A stretch of DNA of 64,000 nt, from the IMG/VR virus record IMGVR_UViG_3300020442_000009, positions 32,001 to 96,000 of that record; one strand, 5' to 3'. Position numbers and translations under genes: made by a program. The notes under the pieces were generated by a model. That model had not been told where the DNA came from. It did no database searches and saw only the letters and a program-made list of their open reading frames with translations. This DNA is from a virus. Numbering within the stretch: position 1 is the first letter of the stretch; every line of letters starts with the position of its first letter. Positions 1 through 49,174 of this stretch are shown one piece after another.

Positions 1-241
1 TAGAACTGCTAATTCTATAATGATTGATATTAATTTTTGGAATAAACTCTATGATGTCTTTTGTTAGGCTTAAATTATGTTCTATTCTAATTCCTAGTTC
101 GCCCAATGCCTCATCATCTCCTCGCTCCTTTTTTAAAGAGGAAAAGTTTCGCTGAGTAATTCCCGAAAAAGACCAAGTGCCTTCTGGCTCTCTTTCTTTG
201 AGAAGTTCTGAGGTTCCTATTAATCCGTATGAGACATCCAT
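1..241 (-). CDS. uvsE: UV-damage endonuclease (UvsE/UvdE family), partial, runs off window start
   Basis: Not in ORF track. Manual translation from ATG 241: MDVSYGLIGTSELL...RIEHNLSLTKDIIEFIPKININHYRISSS, matching the UvsE N-terminal NL...YRxSS pattern; GTGTA motif 9 nt upstream. Confidence 0.7.
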   Translation of the reverse strand, partial: MDVSYGLIGTSELLKEREPEGTWSFSGITQRNFSSLKKERGDDEALGELGIRIEHNLSLTKDIIEFIPKININHYRISSS

Positions 242-254
242 GACATTAATTACA

Positions 255-512
255 CTAAATTTCTGGCAATTGCTCTTTCTCTACATTCTCAGTAGGCTTT
301 TTGTCTTCTGATTTATATATAACATAATCTGGGGCTCTATCATTATTCTTATGCCTGTTGGGAAAGACTATTACTTTTACTTTCTTTTTAATTCCAAGTT
401 CGTCAATTTCAATATTGCCTGTAAGATACTTTCCTTTTGGGCCATCTTTTGTCCAAAAAGCTCCCATCTCACGATTACTCCAATCTGACTTTTGTTTATT
501 ATCTTCTAACAT
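255..512 (-). CDS. DUF736-like small protein
   Basis: GAFWTKDG...YLTGNIE...FPN...NDRAPDYVIY pattern resembles DUF736-like phage proteins. Confidence 0.55.
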   Translation of the reverse strand: MLEDNKQKSDWSNREMGAFWTKDGPKGKYLTGNIEIDELGIKKKVKVIVFPNRHKNNDRAPDYVIYKSEDKKPTENVEKEQLPEI

Positions 513-528
513 GTGTATATAATTTTAT

Positions 529-849
529 ATGGTTGTGATTTATGATTGCCAGTTAACTGAGCCACCTAGCTCAATTCATTGCTTTAGGGATGTAACATTA
601 TTTGCTCAAGTATTTTTAAAAGCTGATAATTTAATTAAATGCCCAAAGGGTACAAGAACCGCTTATTGGGAGTGGATAAAAAATTATGGTGCTCACGACT
701 TTGTGAAATACTTAATTAAAGAGGAAGAGCAACAAGTCGGTGTGACAGTTGGCTCTACTAACTCTACAATTACAATTGATCATATTGATGAATTTAATTA
801 TGCAAATTTAATTAATTCTTTAAAAAATTATAATTACTCGGAGTTTTGA
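529..849 (+). CDS. hypothetical protein
   Basis: 106-aa ORF; GTGTA motif at 513-517. Confidence 0.7.
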   Translation: MVVIYDCQLTEPPSSIHCFRDVTLFAQVFLKADNLIKCPKGTRTAYWEWIKNYGAHDFVKYLIKEEEQQVGVTVGSTNSTITIDHIDEFNYANLINSLKNYNYSEF

Positions 850-1181
850 TTTTTGCTTTTAAATTTAGAGACAAGTCTACCATCTTCATATAAATCAGTA
901 GGTTCTCCGGTTGCTTGTGAATTTTGTCCTTGCTCCTCTTCATTCTCCGAATCATCTATTTGAGGATATAGATTCATAATAGTTTGCAAGATTGAATCAT
1001 ATTTATCTATAGCTTCAAGTTTACGCTTTACTTCTTCACCAATATCAGAATGCTCTCCCACTCCAACAGGCGTCTTAATATAGACTTGAAGATCGGCAAT
1101 GGCTATATTTCTAGAGCCAATGTATTCTTTAAAGATAGCATCAATATGCGGGGGAACACCTTGTTGTTGTTGATTTTGCAT
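834..1181 (-). CDS. conserved marine-phage hypothetical protein (VGVGEH motif)
   Basis: PVGVGEHSDI motif recalled from marine T4-like phage hypotheticals; start moved to ATG 1181, directly after the stop of the upstream small ORF. Confidence 0.65.
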   Translation of the reverse strand: MQNQQQQGVPPHIDAIFKEYIGSRNIAIADLQVYIKTPVGVGEHSDIGEEVKRKLEAIDKYDSILQTIMNLYPQIDDSENEEEQGQNSQATGEPTDLYEDGRLVSKFKSKNQNSE

Positions 1182-1182
1182 T

Positions 1183-1278
1183 TTACTTAGATTGATCTTT
1201 TGCATGTAAAACGGTAAACACTAAGAAAGGCATACCTAACAAGCAAATTAATTCATACATAACTAATATTAAGTCCAT
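1183..1278 (-). CDS. 31-aa single-pass membrane peptide
   Basis: Manual translation MDLILVMYELICLLGMPFLVFTVLHAKDQSK*; fills the gap between two co-oriented genes. Confidence 0.5.
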   Translation of the reverse strand: MDLILVMYELICLLGMPFLVFTVLHAKDQSK

Positions 1279-1296
1279 AATCTTTTTTTTCTATAA

Positions 1297-1836
1297 TTAA
1301 CGATATTTTTTTTGAAGCAGCCTCCAGCGATCAGAATCAATCTCTTTATTGCCACTATCTATAGCATACAACATTTCCATAATTTCGTCAAGCGAATTAT
1401 AAATATATTTATGAGGAAACATTCCTAACATCCAGAGAGGAGTTTTAGCTTTACCGCCTTCCATACTCACAAAAACAGGTTTTTTCTCTCTCACTGCAGT
1501 TACTATTTCCTCTGCGCTTCCCCAAGAGGCCACATCTGGTACAAGATGAGCAATAATAAAGTCTGATCTATCTACAAGATTAAGATCATAAGCTCTCACC
1601 ATTTTCATTCTTTCTGTTACCCTGTCATATTGTTTTGTTTTCATCCAAGTTTCCATTTCTTGACGAGAAGCTTCATCTTCTTCTACATCTTTCATAAATG
1701 GCTTTTTATAAGGGTCAAAACAAGTAATACCTAAAGGTTCTAGCTTTTCTGTAACTTCTTCACGCCAATTTCTGCCGCTTAGATATTGCATATGTCCGAC
1801 AAGATAAGTTTTAGTCTTATATAGTAAGTTACTCAT
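1297..1836 (-). CDS. nucleoside 2-deoxyribosyltransferase / dNMP N-glycosidase-like protein
   Basis: YLVGHM...WRE...FDPY...DLNLVDRSDFIIA...GSAEE pattern of the NDT/Rcl superfamily. Confidence 0.7.
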   Translation of the reverse strand: MSNLLYKTKTYLVGHMQYLSGRNWREEVTEKLEPLGITCFDPYKKPFMKDVEEDEASRQEMETWMKTKQYDRVTERMKMVRAYDLNLVDRSDFIIAHLVPDVASWGSAEEIVTAVREKKPVFVSMEGGKAKTPLWMLGMFPHKYIYNSLDEIMEMLYAIDSGNKEIDSDRWRLLQKKYR

Positions 1837-1842
1837 GATATA

Positions 1843-1871
1843 ATCATACCATGAAACTCGTCCACTGTCAA
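1843..1871 (-). promoter_or_regulatory. sigma-70-type promoter TTGACA-17-TATGAT, likely leaderless transcript
   Basis: -35 at 1866-1871, -10 at 1843-1848, 6 nt before ATG 1836. Confidence 0.8.
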
Positions 1872-1888
1872 CAAAAAACTTGTCGAAA
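1858..1888. repeat. bipartite motif TCGTCCACTGT-N11-TTGTCGAAA, copy 1 of 3
   Basis: Same motif and spacing at 12001-12031 and 12048-12078. Confidence 0.8.
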
Positions 1889-1909
1889 TTTTTTTTTGTT
1901 TATTGCGAT

Positions 1910-3175
1910 TTAGGCAATAATATCTAAAATAGGGGGCTTGCCATTAGAAATTTTAAATGGTCTACCACTTGGCGAGTATGTAATTTTTTCAACACTTAAC
2001 CCCATAGCATATGCTATAGTAGCATTAATTGATTCTATATCAACTCCATTTTCCTCAACATAGTGAGCTCCTTTGTCAGATTTACCATGAACATAACCAG
2101 CTTTTATTCCTCCGCCAGCAAATAGAGCACTAAATGCAGATGGGTGATGATCTCTACCAACTCTACCAGCTTTGATTTCTGGGCTTCTGCCAAATTCACT
2201 AGCAACAACAACCATTGTATCGGAAAGCAAGCCTCTGATATTTAAATCTTCTAATAAAGAACTTAATCCGGCATCTAAAACTGCTCCACGAGTTTCCATA
2301 TTGCCAAAAACATCATTATGCATATCCCAGCCCCCATAAGACACTTCAATAAATCTAACTTTATTCTCAACTAATCTCCTAGCAAGCAAGCAACCTTGGC
2401 CGAAATTATCTCTACCATACCTATCTCTAGTCTCTTCGCTTTCTTTAGTTAAATCAAAAGACTCTAGATCTTTACTTTTCATTAAACTAATTGCATTGTC
2501 ATATAAATCAGAATAAGCTCTAACTTTTTTTTGCGGAAAATCTTTGGAAAAATGTTTATTGAGTAAACGTGATGCATCTAAACGTTTATAAAACATGTTT
2601 TCATCGACATATCCAGATTTTTTAACATTTTGTATACCAGCATTTGGGTTTCCTAGCGGCAACGGGCCATGCTTGCTTTCAAAATAACCAGCTCCAATAA
2701 TTCCACTACCGCCATTAATTTTTATATTATCAGGTAATGTTTCATTTAAACTTCCGCTTAACTTACTAACCCAACTACCCATACTAGGATGGACAATTGT
2801 TCCTCTTTTTTGGTAACTTGTGTGAAGTAAATAATTAGCTTGATCGTGAGCTCCTTGATTACTATTAATTGAACGAACTAAAGATGCTAAATGCATTTGT
2901 TTTGCAGTTTTAGGTAACCAATGACCTAACTGAATGCCATCTGCAGAGGTGTCGATAGCTTCAGTTTCACCCATAATCTCTTTGTTTTCTGGTTTAGGGT
3001 CAAATGTATCTACATGAGTCATTCCGCCTGTCATATTCAGAAATATAACATGTCTAGCAGTAGGCACTCTCGTGGTCTTTGCTATAAGGTTTGGTCCATA
3101 AATTAAGGCATTAACGCCTAAATACGTTTTTGCAATTGTTTTTGCAAAATCTCTTCTTGATAGTTCTTCGTTCAT
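1910..3175 (-). CDS. DUF1501 family protein with Tat signal
   Basis: SRRDFAK twin-arginine leader; VIFLNMTGGMTHVDTFDPKP, FGQGCLLARRLVE, GWDMH, SEFGRSP, GRDHHP motifs. Confidence 0.92.
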   Translation of the reverse strand: MNEELSRRDFAKTIAKTYLGVNALIYGPNLIAKTTRVPTARHVIFLNMTGGMTHVDTFDPKPENKEIMGETEAIDTSADGIQLGHWLPKTAKQMHLASLVRSINSNQGAHDQANYLLHTSYQKRGTIVHPSMGSWVSKLSGSLNETLPDNIKINGGSGIIGAGYFESKHGPLPLGNPNAGIQNVKKSGYVDENMFYKRLDASRLLNKHFSKDFPQKKVRAYSDLYDNAISLMKSKDLESFDLTKESEETRDRYGRDNFGQGCLLARRLVENKVRFIEVSYGGWDMHNDVFGNMETRGAVLDAGLSSLLEDLNIRGLLSDTMVVVASEFGRSPEIKAGRVGRDHHPSAFSALFAGGGIKAGYVHGKSDKGAHYVEENGVDIESINATIAYAMGLSVEKITYSPSGRPFKISNGKPPILDIIA

Positions 3176-3180
3176 AGTAA

Positions 3181-5205
3181 TTATTTAATAAATATAAATT
3201 CGTGAGAATTAAGTAAGATCCAAGATATGTGCTTGAACCCATCCTTTTCATCTACAAAGTTTTTTAAAATTTTTAATTCATTGGCTTTGGGTTTTCTTCC
3301 AAGAATCGATAAGAATGCACTCGTTACTTGTTTTTCTTTGTTTTTTTCTGCTCCTATTAATTTTATAAAGTCTGCATCTTTTTTGTTTAAAATATTAGTT
3401 TCAACAAAACCATTTAAAAGATTTAATACTTGTGTGGTGTTTGGTTCTGAGTTGCTATTATCTATTTGTTCTTTATCGCTACCACCAAACTGCCTAATTA
3501 AGTGACCTCCGGGCGCTGGATGTTGCAGATAGCTGCTTCTTACTAAATTTCTATCTTTAATGGTTTTATTTTGATATTTAGAATTAATTATTCCAAGTAA
3601 ATTTCTATTTCCTTTGTTTTCTTCTGCTATTTTTTTAAAATCATCATATATTTCTTCCCCTGTCATATCTTTATATCTTTCATATATAGGAGTATAGTCT
3701 TGCATATTATGTAAGTAAACTCTTTCTTTGGTGTCAATATTATTATATACTAAAGTCACAAGAGAATCCCATAATTGCTCTCCTGTCATTCTCCTTAAGA
3801 TAGGACCTTCAAAATCATAACTTTCGAGAGTTTTGTAATCTTCTTTTTTGCTTTCTCTTTGAAATAGTTTTGTGTTTAATAAAATTCTTTGATATTCTCT
3901 TAAGTCATAATTCACACTAACCATTAATCTTTCTAAATATTTCATTAATTTAGTATTGCTGGCAATTGTGTCATCCATCATTGTATCTATGGGTTCAATA
4001 AGCCCCGCTCCAAAAATTTGCTTCCAAATTCTATTACTAATCATTGTTGTGAATCTAGGATTATCTTTGCTGACAATCCAATCTGCGAAAATTTTTCTAC
4101 TCTCACCTTCTGGGGACTCTGTTGGCTTTGGGGTAAAAATAGCTTTAGCAACAACTGTATCTCCGGGGTTGCCGTCATCTTCAGCAAAATCTCTAGGTAA
4201 TTTAATTGTGCCTGTGCCATTATTATCTATACCAAATTGTATAGAATCTCTGACTTGATTTCTCCAATTATTAAATAATCCAGCATTGGCGTCGCCATCT
4301 GCATTAATCGCTCTACTTAAGGCTCCTATGACTTTGCCACCCTCCTTTGTTCTTACGTTGCCAATTCCAGAAGTGAATGCTGTCATTTCATAAAATTGTT
4401 TTTGACTCCACTTGTCAAATGGGTGATTATGGCACATGGCACATTCTAATCTAGTGCCGAGAAAAATTCTAATAGTGTGAGATAAATTATCTTCTTGCAT
4501 ACCTCTGTCTCTTAGGTAATAGCTTATTGCCTCCCCGCCATCAAAAAGTTTTCCTGTACTTGAAACTAATTCTTTTACTATTGTATCATAATTTTTTTTG
4601 TCTGCAATTGCATCTCTTAACCACTGCCTGTAAGCAGATCCAACATTTATATTTGTTCCATTAACTCTATCTTTTACTCTCAGCATGTCAGTCCACCAGT
4701 TTAGTTGGTGGTTTACATAGCCATTTGAATGTAGAAGTTTTTGTACTAAATTATCTCTTTTATTACTATCCCTGTCATCAATAAAGCTATTGATTTCTTC
4801 TTGAGTGGGGATTCTTCCGACTGTGGTAAGATATAATCTTCTTACATAGGAATAGTCATCTAAAGGCTTAGTCTTTTGTAATTTTTTTGATCTTAAGTTT
4901 TGATCTATTAATTGATCTATATAAGAAACATATTGTTTTAGTGTGCGTTCATCTACGGGAGTTTTGACTGTAGGTATTGTGCTATACCTATTTTTAGAGA
5001 AATATAATTCTATTTGTTTTTGAGTATCTAGTGTCAATAAATCAATTTTAAACCTAAATTGTTGTAAATCTTGAGATCTAGCTATTCTAACATGGGTTTC
5101 ATTTGCCTCTAATATTTCAGCATCAAGAGATTTACCATCTTTAAAATAAAGAGTGGAGCCAAAACAAAAAGTAGTGGCAAAGAAGAGAAATATAATGTTT
5201 TTCAT
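3181..5205 (-). CDS. DUF1549/DUF1553 (PSCyt2/PSD1) protein with signal peptide, SHD1-like N-domain and one CxxCH
   Basis: YVRRLYLTTVGRIPT, FLGTRLECAMCHNHPFDKW, NRIWKQIFGAGLIEPID, ILLNSHEFIF motifs; ATG at 5205. Confidence 0.92.
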   Translation of the reverse strand: MKNIIFLFFATTFCFGSTLYFKDGKSLDAEILEANETHVRIARSQDLQQFRFKIDLLTLDTQKQIELYFSKNRYSTIPTVKTPVDERTLKQYVSYIDQLIDQNLRSKKLQKTKPLDDYSYVRRLYLTTVGRIPTQEEINSFIDDRDSNKRDNLVQKLLHSNGYVNHQLNWWTDMLRVKDRVNGTNINVGSAYRQWLRDAIADKKNYDTIVKELVSSTGKLFDGGEAISYYLRDRGMQEDNLSHTIRIFLGTRLECAMCHNHPFDKWSQKQFYEMTAFTSGIGNVRTKEGGKVIGALSRAINADGDANAGLFNNWRNQVRDSIQFGIDNNGTGTIKLPRDFAEDDGNPGDTVVAKAIFTPKPTESPEGESRKIFADWIVSKDNPRFTTMISNRIWKQIFGAGLIEPIDTMMDDTIASNTKLMKYLERLMVSVNYDLREYQRILLNTKLFQRESKKEDYKTLESYDFEGPILRRMTGEQLWDSLVTLVYNNIDTKERVYLHNMQDYTPIYERYKDMTGEEIYDDFKKIAEENKGNRNLLGIINSKYQNKTIKDRNLVRSSYLQHPAPGGHLIRQFGGSDKEQIDNSNSEPNTTQVLNLLNGFVETNILNKKDADFIKLIGAEKNKEKQVTSAFLSILGRKPKANELKILKNFVDEKDGFKHISWILLNSHEFIFIK

Positions 5206-5254
5206 CAAAAGCTAATAGTTTATTAATAATAAATTACACTATTTTTTAATAAAA

Positions 5255-5621
5255 TGGTGGAGGTGGCGGGACTTGAACCCGCGTCCTGATGGTCTTCAAG
5301 CAGACACATCTACAAGTTTAGTTAATTTTTTTTAAAGTTATGACATTAACATCCAACTACCTATTACAATTATTTACAGTTTATTAACAGGTAAACCTTT
5401 TCTGTTTTGCAGATTGATGACCCCTTATCTGTAATATCTGCGTCTTACAGTAAGAGGTAGCAGGACTAAGCTGCTAAAGCAAGCCCACGGCTCTTTTGGA
5501 AACCGAAAGCTTTAAGACGTGACTTATTGCCATGTACAAGTTTGCACTTTTTTATCGAAGCCAAGTGCGTCTCCGACTTGCAGTGTAAGAATCCAACCTC
5601 AGTCGAATCCAGTACACCCCC
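5255..5621 (-). ncRNA. ssrA: tmRNA (one-piece), predicted tag (A)GNKSRLKAFGFQKSRGLALAA
   Basis: 5' GGGGGTGTACTGGATTCGAC, 3' GCGGGTTCAAGTCCCGCCACCTCCACCA; acceptor stem with G3-U70; PK1 (TCGGAG/CTTCGA, GCACTT/AAGTGC); tag frame 5531-5466 ending GCA GCT TAG. Confidence 0.95.
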
Positions 5622-5645
5622 ATAAAATTTTAAAGAACTAAATAT

Positions 5646-5674
5646 ATATTACAGCAAAAAAAACAAAAAGTCAA
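5646..5674 (-). promoter_or_regulatory. sigma-70-type promoter for tmRNA (TTGACT-17-TAATAT)
   Basis: -35 at 5669-5674, -10 at 5646-5651. Confidence 0.55.
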
Positions 5675-5681
5675 GAAAAAA

Positions 5682-7013
5682 TTACAAGGGTACACCCCAA
5701 GCTAATATATTTGGCTTCTCTGGTATAAAACTTTTTCCTGAAATAAAAACTCCAGAATCTTCGTCATCTTCAGAGCCTAACTGAGCTGTAAATTTTAAAG
5801 TAACCTGTTTGTTGTCTCCTATTGATGATTGAAAATCTTCATTGGTTAGAGTTGCTTTTCTAATTTCAACTGTCATGTTTTGTTGTTTTTGTACAGCTAC
5901 ATTACAACAATCAACTAAACAGCGACAATCGTGCAGCACAATCCTTATATCAAAAGGATTTTTGCAATATTCAGTCGCAAACCCTCCCTTTTTAAGCTCT
6001 CCAACTATAGCGTCTACCTGAAGTTCTACATTAACTGGAAAGTTTACTGATCGAGTCCACTCTAAGTGGGTTCCAACTCTATGCATCCTTGTGTTGCCTA
6101 GGGGAATGTTTAAAGCAAAGCCTTGTATGCTGCCTGCGCCTCGATCATAACTACTTTGGCCCACTTCTCCATGAGTATCACTAAATCCGCTAACTTGTTC
6201 AGTAACCATAGAGCGATTTTGTAAATCAATTCGGATATCTCCGGGCCTTAAAGCAGTGGTTCCCGGCTTAACATAAATATCTTCCATTCCTGAAACTTGT
6301 TCATAAAGTATACCTTGCTCTGGGTCTGGCAAACTAAATCGCAAGTCTTCTGATCCTAGCTCGCTTAATATACAGTCTTTATTTGGATTAACACTTGGTA
6401 ACGGTAAATTGCATACTCCAGTGTTGTAGGAGCGAATATTAAAACCCTCAAAGGTTGCTCTAGCTCTAGGAAGTTTATCTACTTCGGCAACAAGTGCATA
6501 TTGAGATAAGAAAGCATTACCTATTCCTACAATCCTTTTTGTTTCAGGTTTTATACTTAAATCTGTACCAATTGCATCATGTCCATAGTCTGAGGTTAAT
6601 AGAAAAAAGTTTGCTCCAACCTTTCTATTATAGTCATATATATGGTTCCTTAAGGCTTGATGTGTCCCATCAACATGAAAACCCATTAATTTTTCATTAT
6701 AACCATCTGCAAGTAAGTACTCAAAGTCTAAAGTTATGTCTGGGGTAGTTAGCTGCATAAAGTCTAGCCTTGCTCCTTGGCCATATTGATCTACATTAGT
6801 CCAGTTAATTTTGTAATCAAAATTGACTGATTGTATTCTATGTAGTTGCCTTACTAGATTGCCAGAGCAGCCAGTGGGGGATTCATTTCTTAAGAGGCAA
6901 CCAGAAATGTCATGTGCTGTGTTATTGCCAAAATGGTAGCCTGTAGCATCTAAGCTTGTATATAAAGCTTCAGTTTGGTATATAACCCTAGGTCTGTCAT
7001 AATAATGAGTCAC
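5682..7013 (-). CDS. putative virion structural protein (tail-tube-like, apparent internal duplication)
   Basis: Beta-strand-rich; two similar halves (RIQSVNFDYKI...ITLDFEY...NAFLSQYAL vs SIQGFALNIPL...VELQVDA...KATLTNEDF); tail-tube assignment is inference. Confidence 0.45.
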   Translation of the reverse strand: MTHYYDRPRVIYQTEALYTSLDATGYHFGNNTAHDISGCLLRNESPTGCSGNLVRQLHRIQSVNFDYKINWTNVDQYGQGARLDFMQLTTPDITLDFEYLLADGYNEKLMGFHVDGTHQALRNHIYDYNRKVGANFFLLTSDYGHDAIGTDLSIKPETKRIVGIGNAFLSQYALVAEVDKLPRARATFEGFNIRSYNTGVCNLPLPSVNPNKDCILSELGSEDLRFSLPDPEQGILYEQVSGMEDIYVKPGTTALRPGDIRIDLQNRSMVTEQVSGFSDTHGEVGQSSYDRGAGSIQGFALNIPLGNTRMHRVGTHLEWTRSVNFPVNVELQVDAIVGELKKGGFATEYCKNPFDIRIVLHDCRCLVDCCNVAVQKQQNMTVEIRKATLTNEDFQSSIGDNKQVTLKFTAQLGSEDDEDSGVFISGKSFIPEKPNILAWGVPL

Positions 7014-9402
7014 ATACTATATTACAGTAAAATTCACCATCTTTAAAGTTTAAAGAAATTTTTTCCGGATTTTTTTCTAAATTAATTAATTTTTTTGCAA
7101 TGCAAGTTTCAATTTTATTTTGCATAATTCTTCTAACTGGTCTTGCTCCCATGTTGTCGGACAGTGTTTGCTTTAAAATTTCCTCTCTAGCTTTTTTAGA
7201 TAAAATACATTTAATATTTTTATTTTTTAATTTTAATTTTACCTTATTAAATTCTAAAGTTATAATAGATTTTATCTGTTCTTTATTTAAGTCATTAAAT
7301 ATTACAATGTCATCTAGTCTATTTATAAGTTCAGGACTAAAGACTTTTTTAGCTTCATCTAAAACTCTTGAGTTTTGATTTGAAGAAGATGGGTTAAAAC
7401 CAACTGAATCTGACTTATCTACAACAAAAGCTCCAACATTACTAGTTAATATAATGACTGAATGCTTGCATGATACTTCTTCTCCAGAATTATCCGTAAT
7501 TCTACCTTCTTCTAATATCTGCAGTAAAGACTGCATAACTGTTGGGTGAGCCTTCTCAATTTCATCAAAAAGTAAAACTGAGTACGGGTTACGTTTTAAT
7601 TTTTCAGTTAAACCTCCTCCTTCTTCATAACCTACATAACCGGGAGATGATCCAATTAATTTAGAGGTTGATACGGATTCTGAAAATTCACTCATGTCAA
7701 AATAAATTAAATTTTTAGATCCTCCAAAATAATTTTTAGCTAAAGATTTTGCAGTAAGAGTTTTCCCTAAGCCAGTTTTACCCAAGAATAAAAAACTTGC
7801 AGTTGGTCTATTTTCATCCTTTAATCCTATTTGATGTCTGCAAAGTGAATCATATATTTTTGATATTACATTCGATTGGCCGATTATTTCTTTAGACATT
7901 AGCAAGTTTATTTTTGAAAGTCTTGAAGAGTTGCTTTCATTTAAAACTTCAATAGGTATTGAAAATCTCTCCGAAATAATTTCTTTAATGTGAATAGGTA
8001 AAACGACTGGTGGGGATTTTAATGATTTTGAACCCCACACCCTCATTTGTTTTTGATATTTTGTAAAAACTGTTTTTTTTGTATCATCGTCAACTTCTGG
8101 ATCTACAATAATTTTCTCCAAAGCTTTTATGGAATTTGGTTTTTTGTAACCTTTTATTTTTAATCTAGCTCCAGCTTGATCAATCAAATCGATTGCTTTA
8201 TCAGGTAAAGCCCTATCCTTAATGTATCTGTTTGACAGGAAAATAGCCTCTTCTAGGGATGATTCGTCATACTTTACACTATGAAAACTACTATAACTTT
8301 CCGCTAAAGTATTTAAAATATTTAAACATTCTTTAGGGCTAGGCTCACTTACCCTGACGATTGCAAATCTTCTTTTGAGAGCAGAGTCTTTTTCTATACT
8401 TTTTTTGTATTCCTTATTTGTTGTTGCTCCTATGCAAGTAATTTCTCCTCTAGCAAGATAAGGTTTTAAAATATTAGCAGCATCTAAAGTACCTTCTGCA
8501 TTTCCAGCACCAATTAGAGTGTGAATTTCATCTATAAATAGAATTATATTTTTATCTTTTTTAATATATTCTATAAAAGATTTTAAACGTTCTTCAAATT
8601 GCCCACGGTATTTAGTTCCAGCAACCATGCTAAACAAATCAAGAGATATGACTTGTTTGTTAATTAAATAATCATTGCTGTCGAAATTGGATATTTTTTT
8701 TGCTAAATGCTCAACAAGGGCTGTTTTGCCAACCCCTGCTTCACCAACAAGCATGACGCTTGATTTTGTTTTTCTACATAGAGCTTCTGATATTTGAGAA
8801 TAATAGCCATCATGACAGGATATATAGTCATATTTTCCAGTCGAAGCAATTTCCGTTAAATTTGTGCTATAAGATTCTATGGATTTTGGATTAGATAAAG
8901 ATGTTGGGGCAGTAAGATCATTATTGTTTGTTGACGACATTGAACTTAAGTCTAAATCTAGATTATCGAAATCTATAATTTTTTCTAAATATTTTTTTAA
9001 ATCTTCAACATCTATATCTATAACCAAAAAGAACTCAGGCACTACTGAATTTTCTGCAACTATTAAACTGTATAATATATGCTCTACTGAAACAAAACTG
9101 TGAGATTTTTCGTTCGATAATTGTAAAGCAAAATCTAAGCAGTTTTTGTATTCTTTAGAAAATTTCATCTCGCTTGGTTCATTTATGGTTGGAGTTGTTC
9201 TAATTGTATCTTCAACTAAATCAACCAAGGCTTGCCAATCTATAGAGTACCTTGAAATAAGAAAAGGTAGGATTAATGAATCACTTTTTAATATTGCAAG
9301 AAATAAATGATCTAATCTAATTCTTGAATGAGAAAATTTTTCAGCTAACTTTTTTGAAGTAGCTATTATCTCTTGTGTTCTTGGAGTAAAATTTGGTATC
9401 AT
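6997..9402 (-). CDS. clpC: ClpA/ClpC-type Hsp100 AAA+ unfoldase
   Basis: Clp N-repeats, GEAGVGKT/FIDEIH, GKTGLGKT/LFDEIEKAH, SVGF ClpP-docking loop. Confidence 0.88.
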   Translation of the reverse strand: MIPNFTPRTQEIIATSKKLAEKFSHSRIRLDHLFLAILKSDSLILPFLISRYSIDWQALVDLVEDTIRTTPTINEPSEMKFSKEYKNCLDFALQLSNEKSHSFVSVEHILYSLIVAENSVVPEFFLVIDIDVEDLKKYLEKIIDFDNLDLDLSSMSSTNNNDLTAPTSLSNPKSIESYSTNLTEIASTGKYDYISCHDGYYSQISEALCRKTKSSVMLVGEAGVGKTALVEHLAKKISNFDSNDYLINKQVISLDLFSMVAGTKYRGQFEERLKSFIEYIKKDKNIILFIDEIHTLIGAGNAEGTLDAANILKPYLARGEITCIGATTNKEYKKSIEKDSALKRRFAIVRVSEPSPKECLNILNTLAESYSSFHSVKYDESSLEEAIFLSNRYIKDRALPDKAIDLIDQAGARLKIKGYKKPNSIKALEKIIVDPEVDDDTKKTVFTKYQKQMRVWGSKSLKSPPVVLPIHIKEIISERFSIPIEVLNESNSSRLSKINLLMSKEIIGQSNVISKIYDSLCRHQIGLKDENRPTASFLFLGKTGLGKTLTAKSLAKNYFGGSKNLIYFDMSEFSESVSTSKLIGSSPGYVGYEEGGGLTEKLKRNPYSVLLFDEIEKAHPTVMQSLLQILEEGRITDNSGEEVSCKHSVIILTSNVGAFVVDKSDSVGFNPSSSNQNSRVLDEAKKVFSPELINRLDDIVIFNDLNKEQIKSIITLEFNKVKLKLKNKNIKCILSKKAREEILKQTLSDNMGARPVRRIMQNKIETCIAKKLINLEKNPEKISLNFKDGEFYCNIVCDSLL

Positions 9403-9428
9403 ACAGGCTAGATATATAAAATTACACT

Positions 9429-11990
9429 TTATTTTATATCAGCTAACTTCATGTAAATCTTTTCATCCATTATATTCATGTCTTCTATAAATATAATGTC
9501 TTCACCTTTTCTTCCAACAACTATAAGTATATTGCCTTTTTCTGGTATTTTTCCACCAGAAGAAATATAATCTGTGCATGAAGCTTTTCTGCGGTTATCG
9601 ACTATAATTGCGGGTATAGTTCCATGTTCATCGGTTAATATAACTTTTATATATTGATTGCCATTTGCACTAGTTCTCCTAATTGAATCTTCTACAGTTC
9701 CAATAAACTTACCCCTTTGATTTAATTCCATTGAGTTAAAATATACAGAATCTCTAATTGCTCCATCTGAATCTGAGAAAACATCTTTTAGTTTTTTTGA
9801 ATAACTATAGCCTAATAAATGCTTTTCAAAAAACCAATTCGCAAAATCTTCGTAGTTTTTATTCTTATCATAAATTAATTTATACTTATCATATTTCTTT
9901 TTAAAAGTGGTAAATCTAGATTCTTTCATCAAAGGTTTATTATCATCCGCCACTAGGTTTTCTGATTTTGCTGCATGAATTGAATTTAATATATCATAAT
10001 TATATTTAGGCCCAAGAGCTATAAAATTTCTTTTTTCTCTATCTGTTAGCAAATTAAAAGCTTGAGCCTCTAGCACTAATCTAGGTCTACTTGAAGAAGA
10101 CTGCTCTTCTAGCGCTCCAGCTTGAATTAAGGCAGAAACAACCCCAATATTTAACCCAGCCTGTTTTGCAGACATAAAAATGTCATACTTTGTTACATTT
10201 TCAGTATCCCTAAATTCTTCTAGAGATTTTAGTGATTTTTCACTGACGCCCTTGATATTATTTAATCCGAATCTGATATTATCTGCATCAATTTTAAAAT
10301 CAAAATCAGATTTTACTAAATTAGGTTGAAGTAATCTTATATTAAAAAAAGCAAGTTCTCTGCTAATTTTTGAAATTTCATCTTGAGGGCTAGGTTCAAA
10401 CTGAGCCATCTTTAGTAAGCTAAGAAAGAATTGATGAGGATATTTAAATTTTAGATATGTAGTCCATGCAGCTAGAGTTGAATATGCAATAGCATGAGAT
10501 TTATTAAAAGAATAGTTTGCACTATCTTCCGCAACTCCCCAAAGTATATCTCCAACTTCTTCTGGTAAATTGTTTGATTCAATTTTTTTAGAAATTTTCT
10601 TTTTCCATTTTGGCATTTCTTTTACTTTTTTCTTGCCAACAATTCTCCTTAACTGTTCCGCTTCATCTAAAGTAAATCCGACCTTTACGGCCATTTTCAT
10701 TAATTGCTCTTGATACAACGGAATGCCCCCAGTATAGTCTAATACATCATCAAAAACTTCATGAGTGCTTTGGAAATTAGAAGTTGCTACATATTCTGCA
10801 TACTTATCTGTAAATTCTAAAGCTCCCGGTCTTGCTATTGCAACTACCGCGCTTAATTGCTCCATATTTTTAGGTTTTATTTTTTTGCAAACTCTAAAAT
10901 TAGTATCAGCTTCTATTTGAAATAAGCCATGAGGATTTTCTAAACTCTGCAAAGGCTTATACAAATCTTTTGAATCTAAATCTATATCATAGACATCAAT
11001 ACCTATACTATTGCAAACATCATATATAACACTTAATGTCCTGAGACCTAATATATCAAATTTTACCATCAACTCTGAAACCCAATGCATGTCATACCCA
11101 GAAACTATATTTCCATCAGCAGTTTTTTGAGTAGGACAAATTTCTGAAATTTTATGGTGAGAAATAGCTATACCTGAAGGATGCACTCCAGTATTTTTAT
11201 TTAAACCTTCTATTTTTTTAGCGATTTTTAAAACTCTAGAATTTTCTTCAGACCACTTTTTAAACCTTTGGCTTTCTTCTATAGAATCTTCTATTGAGGC
11301 AACTTTACCAAATTTTTTAGGGATAAAGCCACTAACATCATTAACTTCTTGCTCAGAATACTCTCCAACAATTTTGCCACACTCTTTTATGCAAAGTTTA
11401 CTAGTAAGAGTATTTAATGTTAAAATGTTTGCAGTTCTTCCGGGATGTTTATCTTCGATATACTGTATTACTTTTTGTCTATGCTCATATGCTATATCAT
11501 TATCTACATCAGCCAGTAAACTTCCATCTAAATAGGTAACTCCATCTACCTTTGTTTTCTTTGCCCGACTTTTTGATACAAACCTTTCAAAAAACAACTC
11601 ATATTTGACAGGATCGACCTTGGTAACTCCAATAAGGTATAAAACAAGGGAACCCGCAGCAGATCCACGACCCGGACCAGTGGGTATATTATTATCATGA
11701 CAATAATTAAGAATATCCCAATTAAGAAGAATGTAATCGATAAACCCAAGATCTTTAAGAATTGAAAGTTCTTCTTTTGTTCTAGCATAGTACTCTGTTT
11801 TGTTTGGTAATTCATCTATTCCTTTCTCTTTTACGCCTTGAAGACACAATTGTCTAAGAAAATTAAAATTATCAACATTAGAGTCAATGTCTAATTTTTT
11901 GTAAAACTTATCATCTATATTGATTTTTGGTAAAAGCACCCCCGGAGGTACATGGTTTTCATATTTTGTAAATTTTTTTAAAAAGCTCAT
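9429..11990 (-). CDS. dnaE: DNA polymerase III alpha, catalytic part lacking the PHP domain
   Basis: GPGRGSAAGSLVLYLIGVT, FERFVS, DVDND, KFDILGL, YQEQLM, YSFNKSHA; C-terminal OB-like region. Confidence 0.93.
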   Translation of the reverse strand: MSFLKKFTKYENHVPPGVLLPKINIDDKFYKKLDIDSNVDNFNFLRQLCLQGVKEKGIDELPNKTEYYARTKEELSILKDLGFIDYILLNWDILNYCHDNNIPTGPGRGSAAGSLVLYLIGVTKVDPVKYELFFERFVSKSRAKKTKVDGVTYLDGSLLADVDNDIAYEHRQKVIQYIEDKHPGRTANILTLNTLTSKLCIKECGKIVGEYSEQEVNDVSGFIPKKFGKVASIEDSIEESQRFKKWSEENSRVLKIAKKIEGLNKNTGVHPSGIAISHHKISEICPTQKTADGNIVSGYDMHWVSELMVKFDILGLRTLSVIYDVCNSIGIDVYDIDLDSKDLYKPLQSLENPHGLFQIEADTNFRVCKKIKPKNMEQLSAVVAIARPGALEFTDKYAEYVATSNFQSTHEVFDDVLDYTGGIPLYQEQLMKMAVKVGFTLDEAEQLRRIVGKKKVKEMPKWKKKISKKIESNNLPEEVGDILWGVAEDSANYSFNKSHAIAYSTLAAWTTYLKFKYPHQFFLSLLKMAQFEPSPQDEISKISRELAFFNIRLLQPNLVKSDFDFKIDADNIRFGLNNIKGVSEKSLKSLEEFRDTENVTKYDIFMSAKQAGLNIGVVSALIQAGALEEQSSSSRPRLVLEAQAFNLLTDREKRNFIALGPKYNYDILNSIHAAKSENLVADDNKPLMKESRFTTFKKKYDKYKLIYDKNKNYEDFANWFFEKHLLGYSYSKKLKDVFSDSDGAIRDSVYFNSMELNQRGKFIGTVEDSIRRTSANGNQYIKVILTDEHGTIPAIIVDNRRKASCTDYISSGGKIPEKGNILIVVGRKGEDIIFIEDMNIMDEKIYMKLADIK

Positions 11991-11997
11991 TTAATTA

Positions 11998-12086
11998 ATA
12001 TCGTCCACTGTTAAAAATCTTTTTGTCGAAAAAAAATTTTGATTATATCGTCCACTGTAAAAATGTTTTTTGTCGAAAAAATTTTT
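11998..12086. repeat. tandem 47-bp direct repeat (copies 2 and 3 of the bipartite motif) upstream of dnaE
   Basis: TCGTCCACTGT at 12001 and 12048; TTGTCGAAAAA at 12023 and 12070. Confidence 0.85.
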
Positions 12087-12906: not shown

Positions 12907-13871
12907 ACTTCTACATATCTTACATCTTTTAATACATCTAGATTCTCTCCCCCACCGTAGGAAATAGAACTTTGTAAATCTTGTTTTATTTCTAAAAGTT
13001 TATTCTCGTAAGTCATTGAATTTGAAGCGATATGATTTAGCTTTCCCTCTACATGATTAGTATGACCCTTATTTTCTGCACTTGCAGAACCAAAATAAGC
13101 TTTATGAGAAACACCATTTATTACTGTTGGAATTGCAGGGCTGTCAGTGCAAGAGGCAAATATACCGCCAGCCATAACAAGATCAGCTCCCGCCACTATC
13201 GCTTTTGCTATATCTCCATTAGATTTTATTCCGCCATCTGCAATAATTGGAATTGGTGATGTGTCACCCTCAACAAAGTCTCCCGAATGTAAACCCGAAC
13301 ACTCTTTGATACAACTAAACATTGGTAAAGTAAAACCCGTCTTATCTTTTGTTGTGCAAGGAGAACCTTGACCTATTCCTACTTTTACTATATCAGCACC
13401 CCAGTCAGATAGGGCTCTTACTGCTTCTGCAGTAGCAACATTTCCAGCAATAATTTTAGTGTTAGGTAAATGATTTTTAATCCAACGAATCATTACCTTC
13501 ATTCGCTTGCAGTAACCGTGAGCAATATCAATAGTTAAGTAATCTACTCGATGTTCTCGTTTGCTAATTTTTTGAATTGCCATTTTATCTTTAGCCTTAA
13601 CTCCAACACTAAATGAAATGTTATTCCAATCTTGCGCATTAGCAATATCTTCTGCTATGTCACGATTAAACCTATGCATTATATAAAAGTAATTGCAATC
13701 GCTCATCCATTTAGCCAAACTCATATCAATAACAGATTTCATATTGGCAGGAATAATTGGTAGCAAAAACTTTTTTCCATATAAATTTATGGAAGTATCA
13801 CAATCAGACCTACTATGAACTTCGCTATAGTTAGGAACAAGGGAAACATCTGAATATTTTAAGTATTTCAT
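12903..13871 (-). CDS. guaC: GMP reductase
   Basis: IDIAHG, AGNVAT, KVGIGQGSPCTT, IIADGGI, YFGSAS; no CBS domains. Confidence 0.9.
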   Translation of the reverse strand: MKYLKYSDVSLVPNYSEVHSRSDCDTSINLYGKKFLLPIIPANMKSVIDMSLAKWMSDCNYFYIMHRFNRDIAEDIANAQDWNNISFSVGVKAKDKMAIQKISKREHRVDYLTIDIAHGYCKRMKVMIRWIKNHLPNTKIIAGNVATAEAVRALSDWGADIVKVGIGQGSPCTTKDKTGFTLPMFSCIKECSGLHSGDFVEGDTSPIPIIADGGIKSNGDIAKAIVAGADLVMAGGIFASCTDSPAIPTVINGVSHKAYFGSASAENKGHTNHVEGKLNHIASNSMTYENKLLEIKQDLQSSISYGGGENLDVLKDVRYVEV

Positions 13872-14587
13872 TTTTCTAGATAACTTTCAAAAGAAAATTC
13901 TGGACTTGCTAGATGATCAAAATTTGGAACAGATAAAGTTCGCTGTTTAAATCTCCTACTGCATATACATTTATATGTTTGAAATGCTTCGAAATCTTCT
14001 TTTGTTTCATAAAAAATAGACTTTGTTTCTTCTGTAGGATAATTATTTTTTTTGCAATATTCAAAAACCTTTTCTCTTATAATTAAATCAAAAGGTAGAT
14101 GATTATCTTCTAGGAAAAATGTTGGTTTACAAAATGAAAAGTCAGGTATGCAGCTACAGAAATGTAAAGTATTTTTAAAAATAAAAGAGTCATAGAATGG
14201 TATGGCAAGAGTTAAATCTTCTTCGCTCCACATTTTTTTTAAGCTAGGAAAATCAATTACTCCTTCATTTTCACAAAATGCTTTTGAGTATATTTGATTT
14301 ATTAAATTACAACCAGTTCCGTTTTTTGCAAAAATTAAAATCTTATGAAAACATTTTTCGTTTTCTTTTTTATCTTTGGGTATAGTACTACAAGCATTAA
14401 TTCGTAACCCAAAAACTAAATCAATGTCACTTTCTATAGAATGTTTGTTAGCTTCTAGAAAGCCAATTAATGTATCTTCAACTATTACAACTTGTTTAAG
14501 GTTATTATCATTTGCTATTTTAAAAACTTCATCAGTTTTTAGTATGCTTCTGCCTATGCTGTAATGTGTTTTAAATAGTGGAATCAT
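13868..14587 (-). CDS. stand-alone PHP domain of DNA polymerase III alpha (split dnaE, N-terminal part)
   Basis: PLFKTHYSIGRSIL, LVFGLRI, ILIFAKNGTGCNLINQIYS; ATG at 14587 follows a promoter. Confidence 0.8.
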   Translation of the reverse strand: MIPLFKTHYSIGRSILKTDEVFKIANDNNLKQVVIVEDTLIGFLEANKHSIESDIDLVFGLRINACSTIPKDKKENEKCFHKILIFAKNGTGCNLINQIYSKAFCENEGVIDFPSLKKMWSEEDLTLAIPFYDSFIFKNTLHFCSCIPDFSFCKPTFFLEDNHLPFDLIIREKVFEYCKKNNYPTEETKSIFYETKEDFEAFQTYKCICSRRFKQRTLSVPNFDHLASPEFSFESYLEK

Positions 14588-14598
14588 ATTTAAAAACA

Positions 14599-14627
14599 AT
14601 GATACCACAAATAGGTTAAGAAGTCAA
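14599..14627 (-). promoter_or_regulatory. sigma-70-type promoter TTGACT-17-TATCAT
   Basis: -35 at 14622-14627, -10 at 14599-14604; heads the PHP-guaC-exonuclease unit. Confidence 0.7.
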
Positions 14628-15621: not shown

Positions 15622-15636
15622 ACTTTATATTACACA

Positions 15637-19566: not shown

Positions 19567-19584
19567 CAGTATATATTACACTAA

Positions 19585-19995
19585 TTAGAGTAAGATGTCG
19601 AGCTTTTTAAAAAACGACTTAGATAATTTATCTTTTTCAAATATTTCAACAAGTTTTATTTCATTTAATTCACAAAAATCATGTTTATCATTATCTCTTT
19701 TTAGTTGCATGAGATAATTGTTTTTGTAATCTCCATGAAAAAAGGGTACATGCTTTGTATGTTGGGCTCCTTGTACTTCAATTGCTATCTTTTGGTTTGC
19801 ATTATAAAAATCAAAAGTCATCCTGCTGCCAGCTACTGGAAACTCTTCAAATACAATTTGCCTTTGCCAATAATCTTTTAAGAAATCTTTTACTGATTTT
19901 TGAAATTTACTTTTACTTGAACCATCCCAGTTTACTAAATATTTATTTATACCTATAACTTTTCTAGTTCTTCCTGTTAAGGTTTTAAACTTCAA
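19585..19995 (-). CDS. DUF559/Vsr-like endonuclease
   Basis: FEEF...FDFY...IAIEVQGAQH...RDNDK. Confidence 0.75.
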   Translation of the reverse strand: MKFKTLTGRTRKVIGINKYLVNWDGSSKSKFQKSVKDFLKDYWQRQIVFEEFPVAGSRMTFDFYNANQKIAIEVQGAQHTKHVPFFHGDYKNNYLMQLKRDNDKHDFCELNEIKLVEIFEKDKLSKSFFKKLDILL

Positions 19996-21698: not shown

Positions 21699-22639
21699 TG
21701 ATCTAAAATGCCAGATTGTTCTATTAGTTTAAAAGAGTTTTCTACAATTTTTTCAGTAGTAAAATATTTTTTATAAAAATTATATCCATTTGCTCCTACT
21801 TTTTTTAATAAATTAGTGTTGTCTTTTATTTCTTGATATTTTTCTATAACACTTTCTTTTAATTTATCTAAATCTTTAGGTATGGGAGTTACTGTCTCAT
21901 AGCTAGGTTCCCATTCTATAGGAAAATAAACATCGTCAGGAATGTCAACAATTAATTTTGAAGTAAATCTAGGTCTTATAAAAGGTATTCCAGCTCTCCA
22001 GTATTCGATGTCTCTGTTGCACATATCTCTAATTCCAGACATGGAGAAGCACAGTTTTGCTTCACACATTTTTGTTTTATAGTCTTTTTCTTTTGACCCT
22101 TTTATATCTATTCCCTTTACTCCGCAATCCTCAAGCCGTTTGACTAAATTTCTAACGGTACTAATGTATAGACCCCTGAAATAAATTGATTCATTTTGAG
22201 GTTTATAACAGTTTTCTGGGTATAATGTCTCCCAGTTCCAAGGTCTAAAGTACCAAGGTTTTACTTTATGTCTAATATCTTCACGAACATCTCTGTCGAT
22301 AATTTTTTGATCATAATGACCTGAGTGAAGTACTACCAATTGTTCTCTTGGTATGTCGGAATAGCCTCCTGTGAGTTGTCTTAGGTCAAAATAGGTGGAA
22401 AAAATTAAACACTTTTCTGTTTTAGGGTTTGAAATGAGGGTGCTATTTGGATTAAAAGATGTTTTGTGTCCATATAAGTTATACTGGGGCCATCCTGATT
22501 GGTTTTTTGAGTTAGCTTTTTCAGCAAGCTCAATATCAAAACCTTTACTTTCTAGTAATTTTAGCAGCCTAATGTTAAAATCCCAAAACCACTCCAGTTT
22601 AGACTTTCCATTTACTCCTCCTATGTAATTAAGTTTCAT
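21695..22639 (-). CDS. putative GT-B glycosyltransferase
   Basis: IYFRG...CFSMSG...CNRDIEY...GANGYNFY; cluster context. Confidence 0.5.
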   Translation of the reverse strand: MKLNYIGGVNGKSKLEWFWDFNIRLLKLLESKGFDIELAEKANSKNQSGWPQYNLYGHKTSFNPNSTLISNPKTEKCLIFSTYFDLRQLTGGYSDIPREQLVVLHSGHYDQKIIDRDVREDIRHKVKPWYFRPWNWETLYPENCYKPQNESIYFRGLYISTVRNLVKRLEDCGVKGIDIKGSKEKDYKTKMCEAKLCFSMSGIRDMCNRDIEYWRAGIPFIRPRFTSKLIVDIPDDVYFPIEWEPSYETVTPIPKDLDKLKESVIEKYQEIKDNTNLLKKVGANGYNFYKKYFTTEKIVENSFKLIEQSGILDQ

Positions 22640-23253: not shown

Positions 23254-23254
23254 T

Positions 23255-30438: not shown

Positions 30439-30472
30439 ACATATATATACACCAAGACAATCATTTTTCTAT

Positions 30473-44631: not shown

Positions 44632-44645
44632 ACTTATATATACAC

Positions 44646-49037: not shown

Positions 49038-49174
49038 ATTGAAAAATTACACTGTGATTATAAGGGGATTTTAAAAAAAATCAATATTTGATTAAGAATA
49101 TATCTTAACATAAAAAAGAGTGTACGTCGATAAAAAAAATTGAATTTTTTATTAACACTAATATTATAACTTAT

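Follow-up and report, generated by a model that had tools for sequence, protein, structure and literature searches.

Some of the most expanded gene families in Planctomycetes and Verrucomicrobia consist of gene pairs that join a PSCyt/PSD1 protein with a DUF1501 protein. Parts of two earlier studies present DUF1501 together with PSCyt1, PSCyt2 and PSD1 as a ‘conserved genetic module’ of Planctomycetes, Verrucomicrobia and Lentisphaerae (here collectively PVC bacteria) and state that its function is unknown (Kamneva et al. 2012, PMC3542564; He et al. 2017, PMC5615132); sections of two further papers give the same picture, of a module familiar from bacteria but without a known function (PMC2754498, PMC4960237). 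Here we consider a pair of this kind in viral DNA. It lies in a window of 64,000 nt (the whole stretch of DNA that was analysed), bases 32001–96000 of the 125,909-bp IMG/VR record IMGVR_UViG_3300020442_000009, which is classed as linear and has a CheckV completeness estimate of 93%; coordinates given below without further mark are those of the window. A preliminary description, made from the letters of this DNA, had singled out the pair as a PVC signature not described in a phage. Our literature search, which did not extend to supplementary gene tables or to the supplementary figures of Kamneva et al., gave no description of the pair in a virus, in agreement with that claim; one phage paper names DUF1501, for a weak match of a 61-aa protein. 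The only cultured Verrucomicrobia phage found in this search is a 2015 isolate, which is described as the first that is lytic (PMC4642752). As a carrier of this bacterial module, a virus appears to be new. Our reading is that the pair very probably derives from a host and serves a large, uncultured, tailed marine phage as a functional auxiliary module.

The pair itself is made up of the following elements, all on the minus strand:

1910–3175, minus strand: DUF1501 gene, 421 amino acids (aa), predicted protein of the alkaline-phosphatase superfamily with a putative twin-arginine translocation (Tat) signal (Pfam PF07394, AlphaFold2 (AF2) model, fold matches)
3146–3160, minus strand: twin-arginine motif SRRDF, DUF1501 residues 6–10 (translation, family alignment)
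3176–3180, minus strand: 5-nt spacer TTACT between both genes (read from the sequence)
3181–5205, minus strand: partner gene, 674 aa, with predicted signal peptide, SH3-like barrel, PSCyt2 and PSD1 (Pfam, orthologue starts, AF2 model)
3256–4098, minus strand: PSD1/DUF1553 domain, partner residues 371–651 (PF07587, E = 7.9e-32, 111 bits vs 28.5)
4369–4920, minus strand: PSCyt2/DUF1549 domain, partner residues 97–280 (PF07583, E = 2.5e-40, 139.1 bits vs 29.8)
4429–4443, minus strand: CAMCH, a CxxCH motif of haem-c type (translation)
4996–5166, minus strand: N-terminal SH3-like (SHD1-like) beta-barrel, partner residues 14–70 (structure match)

Two full-length co-oriented genes 5 nt apart had been reported, and the junction reads accordingly: the open reading frames (ORFs) 1910–3175 and 3181–5208 are both on the minus strand, and the stop codon of the partner, TAA at 3181–3183, is followed by TTACT and by the ATG of DUF1501 at 3175. 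No Shine-Dalgarno-like purine run is visible in the 5-nt spacer as read from the sequence. The partner ORF also opens one codon earlier, at TTG 5208 (675 aa); the start is probably ATG 5205, since the corresponding Met is the first residue in all viral orthologues (20/20). The statement that the pair is as AT-rich as its neighbours holds for GC content (0.358 and 0.318 for the two genes vs a neighbour mean of 0.327, s.d. 0.033) and for GC at third codon positions (GC3 z-scores of −0.64 and +0.19). It holds for codon use as well: relative synonymous codon usage (RSCU) of the pair correlates with that of the rest of the record at r = 0.947, and the same correlation has a median of 0.931 for 21 other long genes and is 0.475 for Opitutia homologues. 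The two genes are thus intact, and their composition is adapted to the phage.

A pattern scan of IMG/VR with DUF1501 gave 20 viral loci at 54–86% identity. Nineteen of them hold both genes, co-oriented and with the partner upstream; the remaining one holds DUF1501 only. Arrangement within the 19 two-gene loci varies: the genes abut in nine, are separated by a gap of 0.7–1.1 kb in two and by a Lys-rich gene in five; in two loci (identical sequences) a second DUF1501 gene stands between them, and in one they are 7.5 kb apart. Among these relatives the locus shifts position within the replication and nucleotide-metabolism module, and the pair is found in the company of ribonucleotide reductase (RNR), GMP reductase, nucleoside deoxyribosyltransferase (NDT), NUDIX and replication genes. 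The ratio of nonsynonymous to synonymous divergence (dN/dS) was computed by the Nei-Gojobori method; in the four least-saturated pairs per gene (dS 0.7–1.3, all <1.5) it was 0.042–0.055 for the partner and 0.014–0.055 for DUF1501. For more diverged pairs, with saturated dS, it did not exceed 0.115 for the partner and 0.144 for DUF1501 among the 25 pairs listed per gene. Decay of the genes, which would appear as dN/dS near 1 or as frameshifts, had been named as a possible objection; with the pair intact in 19/20 loci and the low ratios above, we observe strong purifying selection on both genes across a clade of 100–225-kb viral records. The pair thus combines two features of auxiliary metabolic genes, a host-derived gene inside a viral genome and purifying selection; this applies to the genes as such, the metabolic role being putative.

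As for DUF1501 on further viral contigs, for which a search of IMG/VR had been proposed, a wider scan with a 65-row alignment matched 514 IMG/VR stretches, at least 499 of which encode a DUF1501 relative. The best 80 of the 514 were examined and contributed 60 new loci. Twenty of these are 51–54% identical, with the partner directly upstream in seven; the other 40 are 40–45% identical and have the partner adjacent in 39 and a contig edge in one. Two or more DUF1501 matches occur in 12 of the 60 new loci, L160 being among them by virtue of split matches of a single gene. In L160 shortened or split matches are seen for DUF1501, RNR, exonuclease and DnaE, which suggests frameshifts or poor assembly. 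A search of 50,697 GenBank phage records with DUF1501 (tblastn) gave no match; thus, no cultured phage in that collection carries DUF1501.

Two side observations belong to these loci. A second, distant DUF1501 paralogue, 29–35% identical, is present beside one partner gene in L013/L022 (8709–9986) as well as in L146, L169, L172, L175, L179, L184, L186, L188, L189, L192 and L193. The Lys-rich gene has its counterpart in the window at 45273–46169 (minus strand); its product is a protein of shuffled conserved modules, 192–593 aa long in relatives L006–L025, and belongs to phrog_7595 of unknown function. This gene lies between the genes of the pair in five relatives and right after them in three (8/20). 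It was considered as a third member of the system and rejected, as its product lacks a signal peptide and resembles a basic protein of the cytoplasm or the virion.

The DNA had been taken for an apparent phage genome. The phage part of this claim stands, on account of replication genes of the record and of terminases and terminal repeats of its relatives; the record itself, though, is incomplete and has no terminase. Neighbours of the pair match phage families (DnaB-like helicase, primase, UvsX-like recombinase, exonuclease and both RNR subunits), and further Pfam matches include DNA polymerase III alpha (DnaE) domains and NUDIX, GMP-reductase-like and NDT-like proteins. DUF1501 proteins 99% identical to that of the record are encoded on contigs of 209,020 and 208,921 bp; therefore, the record probably makes up about 60% of a genome, and the CheckV estimate looks too high. 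Terminase_6N was found in three of three larger related records (184, 222 and 205 kb), the terminase of one of them matching phrog_2 with E = 1.5e-26. Five of five further large records carrying the gene or the pair have a terminase, and two (224.7 and 184.5 kb) have direct terminal repeats. In the 184-kb relative, 62 of 230 ORFs match this record. The distance from cultured phages (22–26% identity for terminase, 31–33% for DnaE) indicates an uncultured lineage.

Concern that the locus could be cellular or chimeric, or could show uneven read depth, found no support. Each of eight marine metagenome runs from four studies holds at least 79% of the sampled words of positions 1200–9500; no RNA run was among those listed. 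Contigs from three independent studies cover positions 1–12000 with 0–1 differences and bridge the NDT/DUF1501, DUF1501/partner and partner/tmRNA boundaries (tmRNA, transfer-messenger RNA); no single contig among those listed covers all 12 kb. Over the pair, depth resembles that of most flanking bins, apart from the tmRNA and Clp bins; the spikes at 5201–5600 (tmRNA) and 8001–8800 (conserved Clp AAA domain) probably sum other organisms.

The DUF1501 protein matches its Pfam model over positions 1–389 of 390 (E = 2.8e-104, 349.8 bits vs a cut-off of 27). The proposed Tat leader SRRDF is where it was described; every one of the 65 rows of the DUF1501 alignment (A2) has R7, and 64 have R8. The AF2 model has a mean pLDDT (predicted local distance difference test) of 91.6. 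Its top structural match is the alkaline phosphatase PafA (5too; Z = 20.9, root-mean-square deviation (rmsd) 4.1 Å over 278 residues), and ENPP6 (Z = 20.3), a bacterial nucleotide pyrophosphatase/phosphodiesterase (NPP; Z about 20) and sulfatases (Z = 18–19) follow; Foldseek gave sulfatases, the lipoteichoic-acid synthase LtaS and alkaline phosphatase at E about 1e-6. The earlier suggestion of a phosphatase/sulfatase fold is therefore in line with the model, at Z of 18–21. A profile search of PDB sequences returned 27 weak matches (E = 0.03–2.1), all 27 to sulfatases or LtaS; they align the invariant SEFGR segment of DUF1501 to the metal-ligand segment of sulfatases. Residues H110, Y253, D284, D301, E327, F328, R330, R341, H343 and R405 are invariant in the 65 rows, with H286 and D342 nearly so. 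We infer a metalloenzyme of the alkaline-phosphatase superfamily, with the identity of the nucleophile uncertain.

A type I sulfatase was considered separately and ruled out, given that the formylglycine motif C/S-x-P/A-x-R is absent from the protein and that there is no Pfam Sulfatase (PF00884) match; nor is there a Phosphodiest match, in either case at E ≤ 10. For the two proteins of the pair, Pfam and NCBIfam at relaxed cut-offs gave DUF1501, PSCyt2 and PSD1 only, and a sequence search of PDB gave nothing meaningful for either.

In the partner protein, the CAMCH motif noticed earlier is present in identical form in 20 of 20 viral orthologues; in the 50-row partner alignment (A3), C255, C258 and H259 are invariant (50/50) and the next His is kept in 47 rows. 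A Sec-type signal, also proposed before, is likely in view of a hydrophobic N-terminus and of pLDDT < 50 for residues 1–15. The claim of an SHD1-like domain is correct at the level of fold: the barrel matches Sla1 SHD1 (2hbp) with Z = 7.1 and rmsd 1.9 Å over 55 residues, the top row of a wide structural search, and Foldseek gives the match a probability of 1.00. It is not supported at the level of family, the barrel having no Pfam SHD1 match even at E ≤ 10. The AF2 model of the partner (mean pLDDT 88.7) is mostly helical.

A two-protein complex had been suggested, with co-folding as the check. We co-folded partner residues 85–674 with DUF1501 residues 38–421, each with its own alignment, along with three controls. 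The interface score ipSAE was 0.88, 0.87 and 0.88 for the pair and 0.00 for all three controls. Of solved complexes 58/80 reach that mark, as do 2/110 mismatched pairs; these benchmark counts apply only roughly, because our own alignments were used. The runs share at least 65% of contacts, with a pLDDT of at least 87 for the partner chain, and a remembered complex is unlikely, since neither protein has a sequence relative in PDB. The prediction supports binding of the partner to DUF1501. In the predicted interface, partner segments 452–472, 566–607 and 643–674 would face the helical insert 166–232 of DUF1501; conserved residues within it are R472, Q592, L594, N598, E643 and N666 of the partner and R198 and F209 of DUF1501. 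Residues of CAMCH are outside the predicted interface.

A link to another kind of DUF1501 pair came from Planctomycetota, where a DUF1800 gene is followed by a DUF1501 gene in at least seven of 31 loci (1.5-kb flanks). Profiles were compared on the basis of alignments A3 and A4 (loci L198–L228). The C-terminal half of a 21-row DUF1800 profile matched columns 374–664 of the partner profile, i.e. the region from PSD1 to the C-terminus, with an hhalign probability of 93.9% (E = 1.6e-7, 235 columns). The comparison with a single DUF1800 sequence was not significant (probability 0.55%), no Pfam match of DUF1800 (PF08811) to the partner was found at E ≤ 10, and the profile–profile comparison reported no DUF1800 match to the PSCyt2 region or to the barrel. 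As the match covers the region from PSD1 to the C-terminus, the docking domain seems common to both kinds of DUF1501 partner; as it stops short of PSCyt2 and the barrel, these two are suggested to be N-terminal additions.

The cellular counterparts were looked for by scanning 185,579 species genomes with two patterns; the best 80 of the matches are listed. Among these, the closest DUF1501 genes, at 44–51% identity, belong to metagenome-assembled genomes (MAGs) of Verrucomicrobiota (Opitutia, Verrucomicrobiales, Prosthecobacter, Akkermansiaceae) and to Planctomycetaceae. Of the 24 closest cellular loci among the matches listed, 21 carry the whole partner gene immediately upstream; in one a contig edge leaves only part of it, and two begin at such an edge; we conclude that the pair was acquired as a unit. 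The same families in the standard order make the pair the PVC signature that it had been called. For some of the Opitutia and Verrucomicrobiales partner homologues the alignment reaches the N-terminal barrel region.

The cellular sample in the trees was picked by likeness to the viral genes and so favours relatives of this clade. A maximum-likelihood tree of 105 rows unites the 20 main viral copies in a single clade (SH-aLRT support 100). Its sister is made up of the viral copy L025 and the gene L027 of an Opitutia MAG, which are 85.2% identical over 432 aa, and all of these are nested among Verrucomicrobiota genes. The contig of L027 looks cellular, as its GC content is 0.44 and none of its other ORFs of at least 100 aa matches a viral protein. 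The second viral paralogue falls into another DUF1501 subfamily, beside Verrucomicrobiales and Opitutales genes. In a FastTree phylogeny of 165 rows the viral label needs four changes, and the nearest cellular row is the Opitutia gene for 41 viral rows, Fuerstiella (Planctomycetota) for 40 and Verrucomicrobiales for two. A phylogeny against PVC paralogues had been proposed, and these trees indicate at least three acquisitions of DUF1501 genes by phages; among the cellular genes sampled, the nearest are from Verrucomicrobiota for the clade of this record, its sister group and the second paralogue, and Planctomycetota for the third viral group. Five Verrucomicrobiota genomes have 18–58 DUF1501 matches each; phages keep one or two. 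Judging from gene phylogeny, the host is probably an Opitutia-like marine member of Verrucomicrobiota.

Ahead of the pair there are two further features:

5235–5239, minus strand: GTGTA with an AT-rich run after it, candidate for a phage promoter-like motif upstream of the partner gene (sequence; motif class enriched before ORF starts)
5255–5621, minus strand: tmRNA gene (ARAGORN), with the tag read as ANLYMAISHVLKLSVSKRAVGLL

The GTGTA motif is thus present at the place where it had been described, on the minus strand, 26 nt ahead of the TTG and 29 nt ahead of the ATG of the partner. The tmRNA gene is directly upstream of the pair, its CCA end 15 nt before the motif. Across the window the pentamer is rarer than expected by chance (52 vs 72 copies); in the whole record, 17 copies are located 5–20 nt ahead of ORF starts on the coding strand, vs 1.06 expected. 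The copy before the pair is outside this 5–20 nt class. We also saw that GTGTA with an AT-rich run stands 9–12 nt ahead of many start codons, of replication genes and large right-arm genes alike; examples in the window are at 251–255, 513–517, 9423–9427, 15631–15635, 19577–19581, 30448–30452, 44641–44645, 46182–46186 and 49048–49052. Together with the AT-rich run, GTGTA is a candidate phage promoter or translation-start signal lacking a Shine-Dalgarno sequence.

These observations allow us to propose how the pair may work. After infection it would be transcribed from the phage's own GTGTA-type motif. The partner would exit via Sec, and host machinery may attach haem at CAMCH; DUF1501 would be folded and loaded with metal in the cytoplasm and would exit via Tat. 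In the periplasm the two could form a 1:1 complex, with C-terminal helices of PSD1 docked on the helical insert 166–232 of DUF1501; DUF1501 would be the catalytic subunit, and the partner would provide targeting or electron transfer. Our tentative guess is that a phospho- or sulfo-ester nutrient in the periplasm is hydrolysed or otherwise converted by the complex, raising the supply for nucleotide synthesis while the genome of roughly 200 kb replicates. The guess is motivated by the fold, by the Tat route, which is also that of phosphatases such as PhoX and PhoD, and by the nucleotide-metabolism genes that constantly accompany the pair. One could speculate further, with little confidence, that a haem-coupled metalloenzyme complex in the periplasm, with DUF1501 docked on a subunit of PSD1/DUF1800 type, is essential to large phages that infect Verrucomicrobia and Planctomycetes; it would carry out a hitherto unrecognised redox-assisted cleavage of an abundant marine ester or polymer, a step that would limit phage yield. 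If so, the phage version would mark, among the tens of paralogues of the host, the substrate most vital in infection, and would thereby point to the chemistry of the whole orphan family.

Several observations weigh against a functional module of this kind in a Verrucomicrobiota phage, and they are taken here together with the rival explanations. Neither Pfam nor PHROG recognised a hallmark virion or packaging gene in the record, so that its viral nature rests on replication genes and relatives. Pfam, as well as tblastn with terminases of the relatives, found no terminase in it, and in the 184-kb relative the candidate portal and capsid genes that adjoin its terminase have no PHROG match. In the viral group of 51–54% identity, 13 of 20 loci have no partner gene within the flank; in L160 (8001–8951) the DUF1501 match is shortened. 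One may therefore ask whether the locus is cellular or mis-assembled, or whether the genes are decaying passengers, as the missing terminase and the shortened match in one related locus would permit. That would be at odds with independent assemblies bridging three gene boundaries, with relatives that have terminases and terminal repeats, with both genes kept in 19/20 relatives, and with dN/dS of at most 0.055 and a codon use that is the phage's; we regard it as very improbable. The assignment of the host is indirect, being drawn from gene phylogeny, and the RNR small subunit carries no host signal (37–51% identity in the 11 of 31 Opitutia genomes with a match). The GC content of the phage, 0.32, is well below the 0.44 of the Opitutia contig, which would suit a phage that infects a non-PVC Gram-negative host and gained the pair from PVC bacteria by rare lateral transfer; DUF1501 does occur outside PVC bacteria, since one of 14 control genomes with it is that of Caulobacter and the tree has rows from Acidobacteriota, Bacteroidota and Armatimonadota. 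Such a history is rather unlikely, given that each of the acquisitions, of which there are at least three, falls next to genes of Verrucomicrobiota or Planctomycetota, that one viral copy is 85% identical to an Opitutia gene, and that some Opitutia and Verrucomicrobiales homologues align over the barrel region too.

Further points of this kind concern function. The candidate nucleophile position 53 of DUF1501 is Ser or Thr in 55 of 65 rows and Ala or Pro in 10, which makes a Ser/Thr-phosphatase mechanism unsure. Bacterial neighbours of the pair (ten proteins scanned: one sulfatase, a lectin, an esterase, a pyrroloquinoline quinone (PQQ) propeller, a radical S-adenosylmethionine (SAM)/SPASM protein and regulators) are heterogeneous and give no clue to the substrate. 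Conservation of the predicted interface is not above average, 0.50 vs 0.46 for the partner and 0.45 vs 0.54 for DUF1501. The helical body of the partner has no match among solved folds, cytochromes included (best E of 0.024 in Foldseek, best Z of 5.9 in VIA-align); as the model spans 674 residues and its domains were not folded alone, the fold need not be new. Haem binding by the partner is suggested by a single feature, the CxxCH motif. The partner may thus not be a haem or redox protein; the motif could bind metal or be structural, and the protein could act as an adaptor or escort for DUF1501. Along with the missing cytochrome match, this would suit the location of CAMCH outside the predicted interface and the DUF1800 match of the docking PSD1 region, with none reported for the PSCyt2 region. 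We find the adaptor role somewhat doubtful, since C, C and H are invariant in 50/50 rows with the next His kept in 47/50, and since export by a signal peptide fits periplasmic haem attachment. An action on the cell envelope appears unlikely. There, the module would alter or remove a glycan or a lipid head group, at the surface or in the periplasm, and may serve to block superinfection, to help release or to assist the large glycosylation programme of the phage; lipoteichoic-acid synthases belong to the alkaline-phosphatase superfamily and are among the DUF1501 fold matches, the record is rich in glycosyltransferases, and the SH3-like barrel at the N-terminus could tether. The top fold matches of DUF1501, however, are soluble phosphatases and phosphodiesterases (PafA and NPP, Z about 20–21), with sulfatases at about 18–19; in the relatives the pair travels with nucleotide-metabolism and replication genes rather than with glycosyltransferase islands; and 18–58 host copies fit a substrate-diverse catabolic family better than a single envelope function.

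Other genes of the record may be noted briefly. The phage encodes a double-AAA ATPase of the ClpA/ClpB type, a DnaE without PHP domain plus a separate PHP protein, and Hsp20 (6997–9402, 9429–11990, 13868–14608 and 44709–45167). Many glycosyltransferase-like genes are present (19992–25782 and 40965–42710 in the window; L004:4008–5933), including two tandem phrog_24687 paralogues (E = 4.9e-91 and 3.8e-127) and an HtrL/GT2 fusion. Ten large ORFs of the right arm gave only glycosyltransferase, unknown PHROGs and Calx-beta. An ORF of 2423 aa (L005:2243–9514, minus strand; record bases 108242–115513) and several right-end ORFs of 500–950 aa have no Pfam or PHROG match except Calx-beta in two; the large right-end ORFs presumably encode virion or fibre proteins.

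A functional auxiliary module in a phage would be of use for the study of the bacterial one. With only one or two copies in the phage, held by strong selection in a gene context that is defined, it offers a small, single-copy and highly conserved version to express, assay and solve. The predicted complex, taken with the PSD1–DUF1800 match, suggests a docking subunit for DUF1501 in both kinds of pair. In addition, Verrucomicrobiota are proposed, from gene phylogeny, as hosts of marine phages of about 200 kb that form an abundant and uncultured clade.

How the pair compares with known systems can be put as follows. With members of the alkaline-phosphatase superfamily (PafA, NPP/ENPP, type I sulfatases, LtaS) DUF1501 would share the core fold and conserved Asp, His and Glu at typical metal-ligand positions; it differs in having only 9–15% identity to them, in a Ser/Thr 53 that is not invariant, and in the helical insert 166–232, which serves the predicted docking. 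Phages are known to carry auxiliary metabolic genes for nutrient scavenging, such as pstS and phoA of cyanophages, and PhoX and PhoD are Tat-exported phosphatases. The likeness to these lies in a host-derived exported protein encoded in a marine phage beside nucleotide-metabolism genes, and in a metalloenzyme that is predicted to be exported by Tat; the phage pair is unrelated to them in sequence and has two subunits, one of them a partner with a haem motif. Pairs of DUF1800 and DUF1501 genes occur across bacteria, and in our data were seen in Planctomycetota only; they resemble the phage pair in that the DUF1501 gene follows the partner gene and in the shared docking region, and differ from it in that no match to the PSCyt2 region is reported for DUF1800. 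The closest system is the module of Kamneva et al. (2012). The phage pair has neither its PSCyt1 nor a carbohydrate-binding module, and is virus-borne and single-copy (with two DUF1501 genes in some relatives) as opposed to the 18–58 copies in five Verrucomicrobiota genomes; it shares with the bacterial module the Pfam families, the gene order, the predicted Tat and signal-peptide leaders and the invariant CxxCH, and combines them with a phage-like composition and a phage-type upstream motif.

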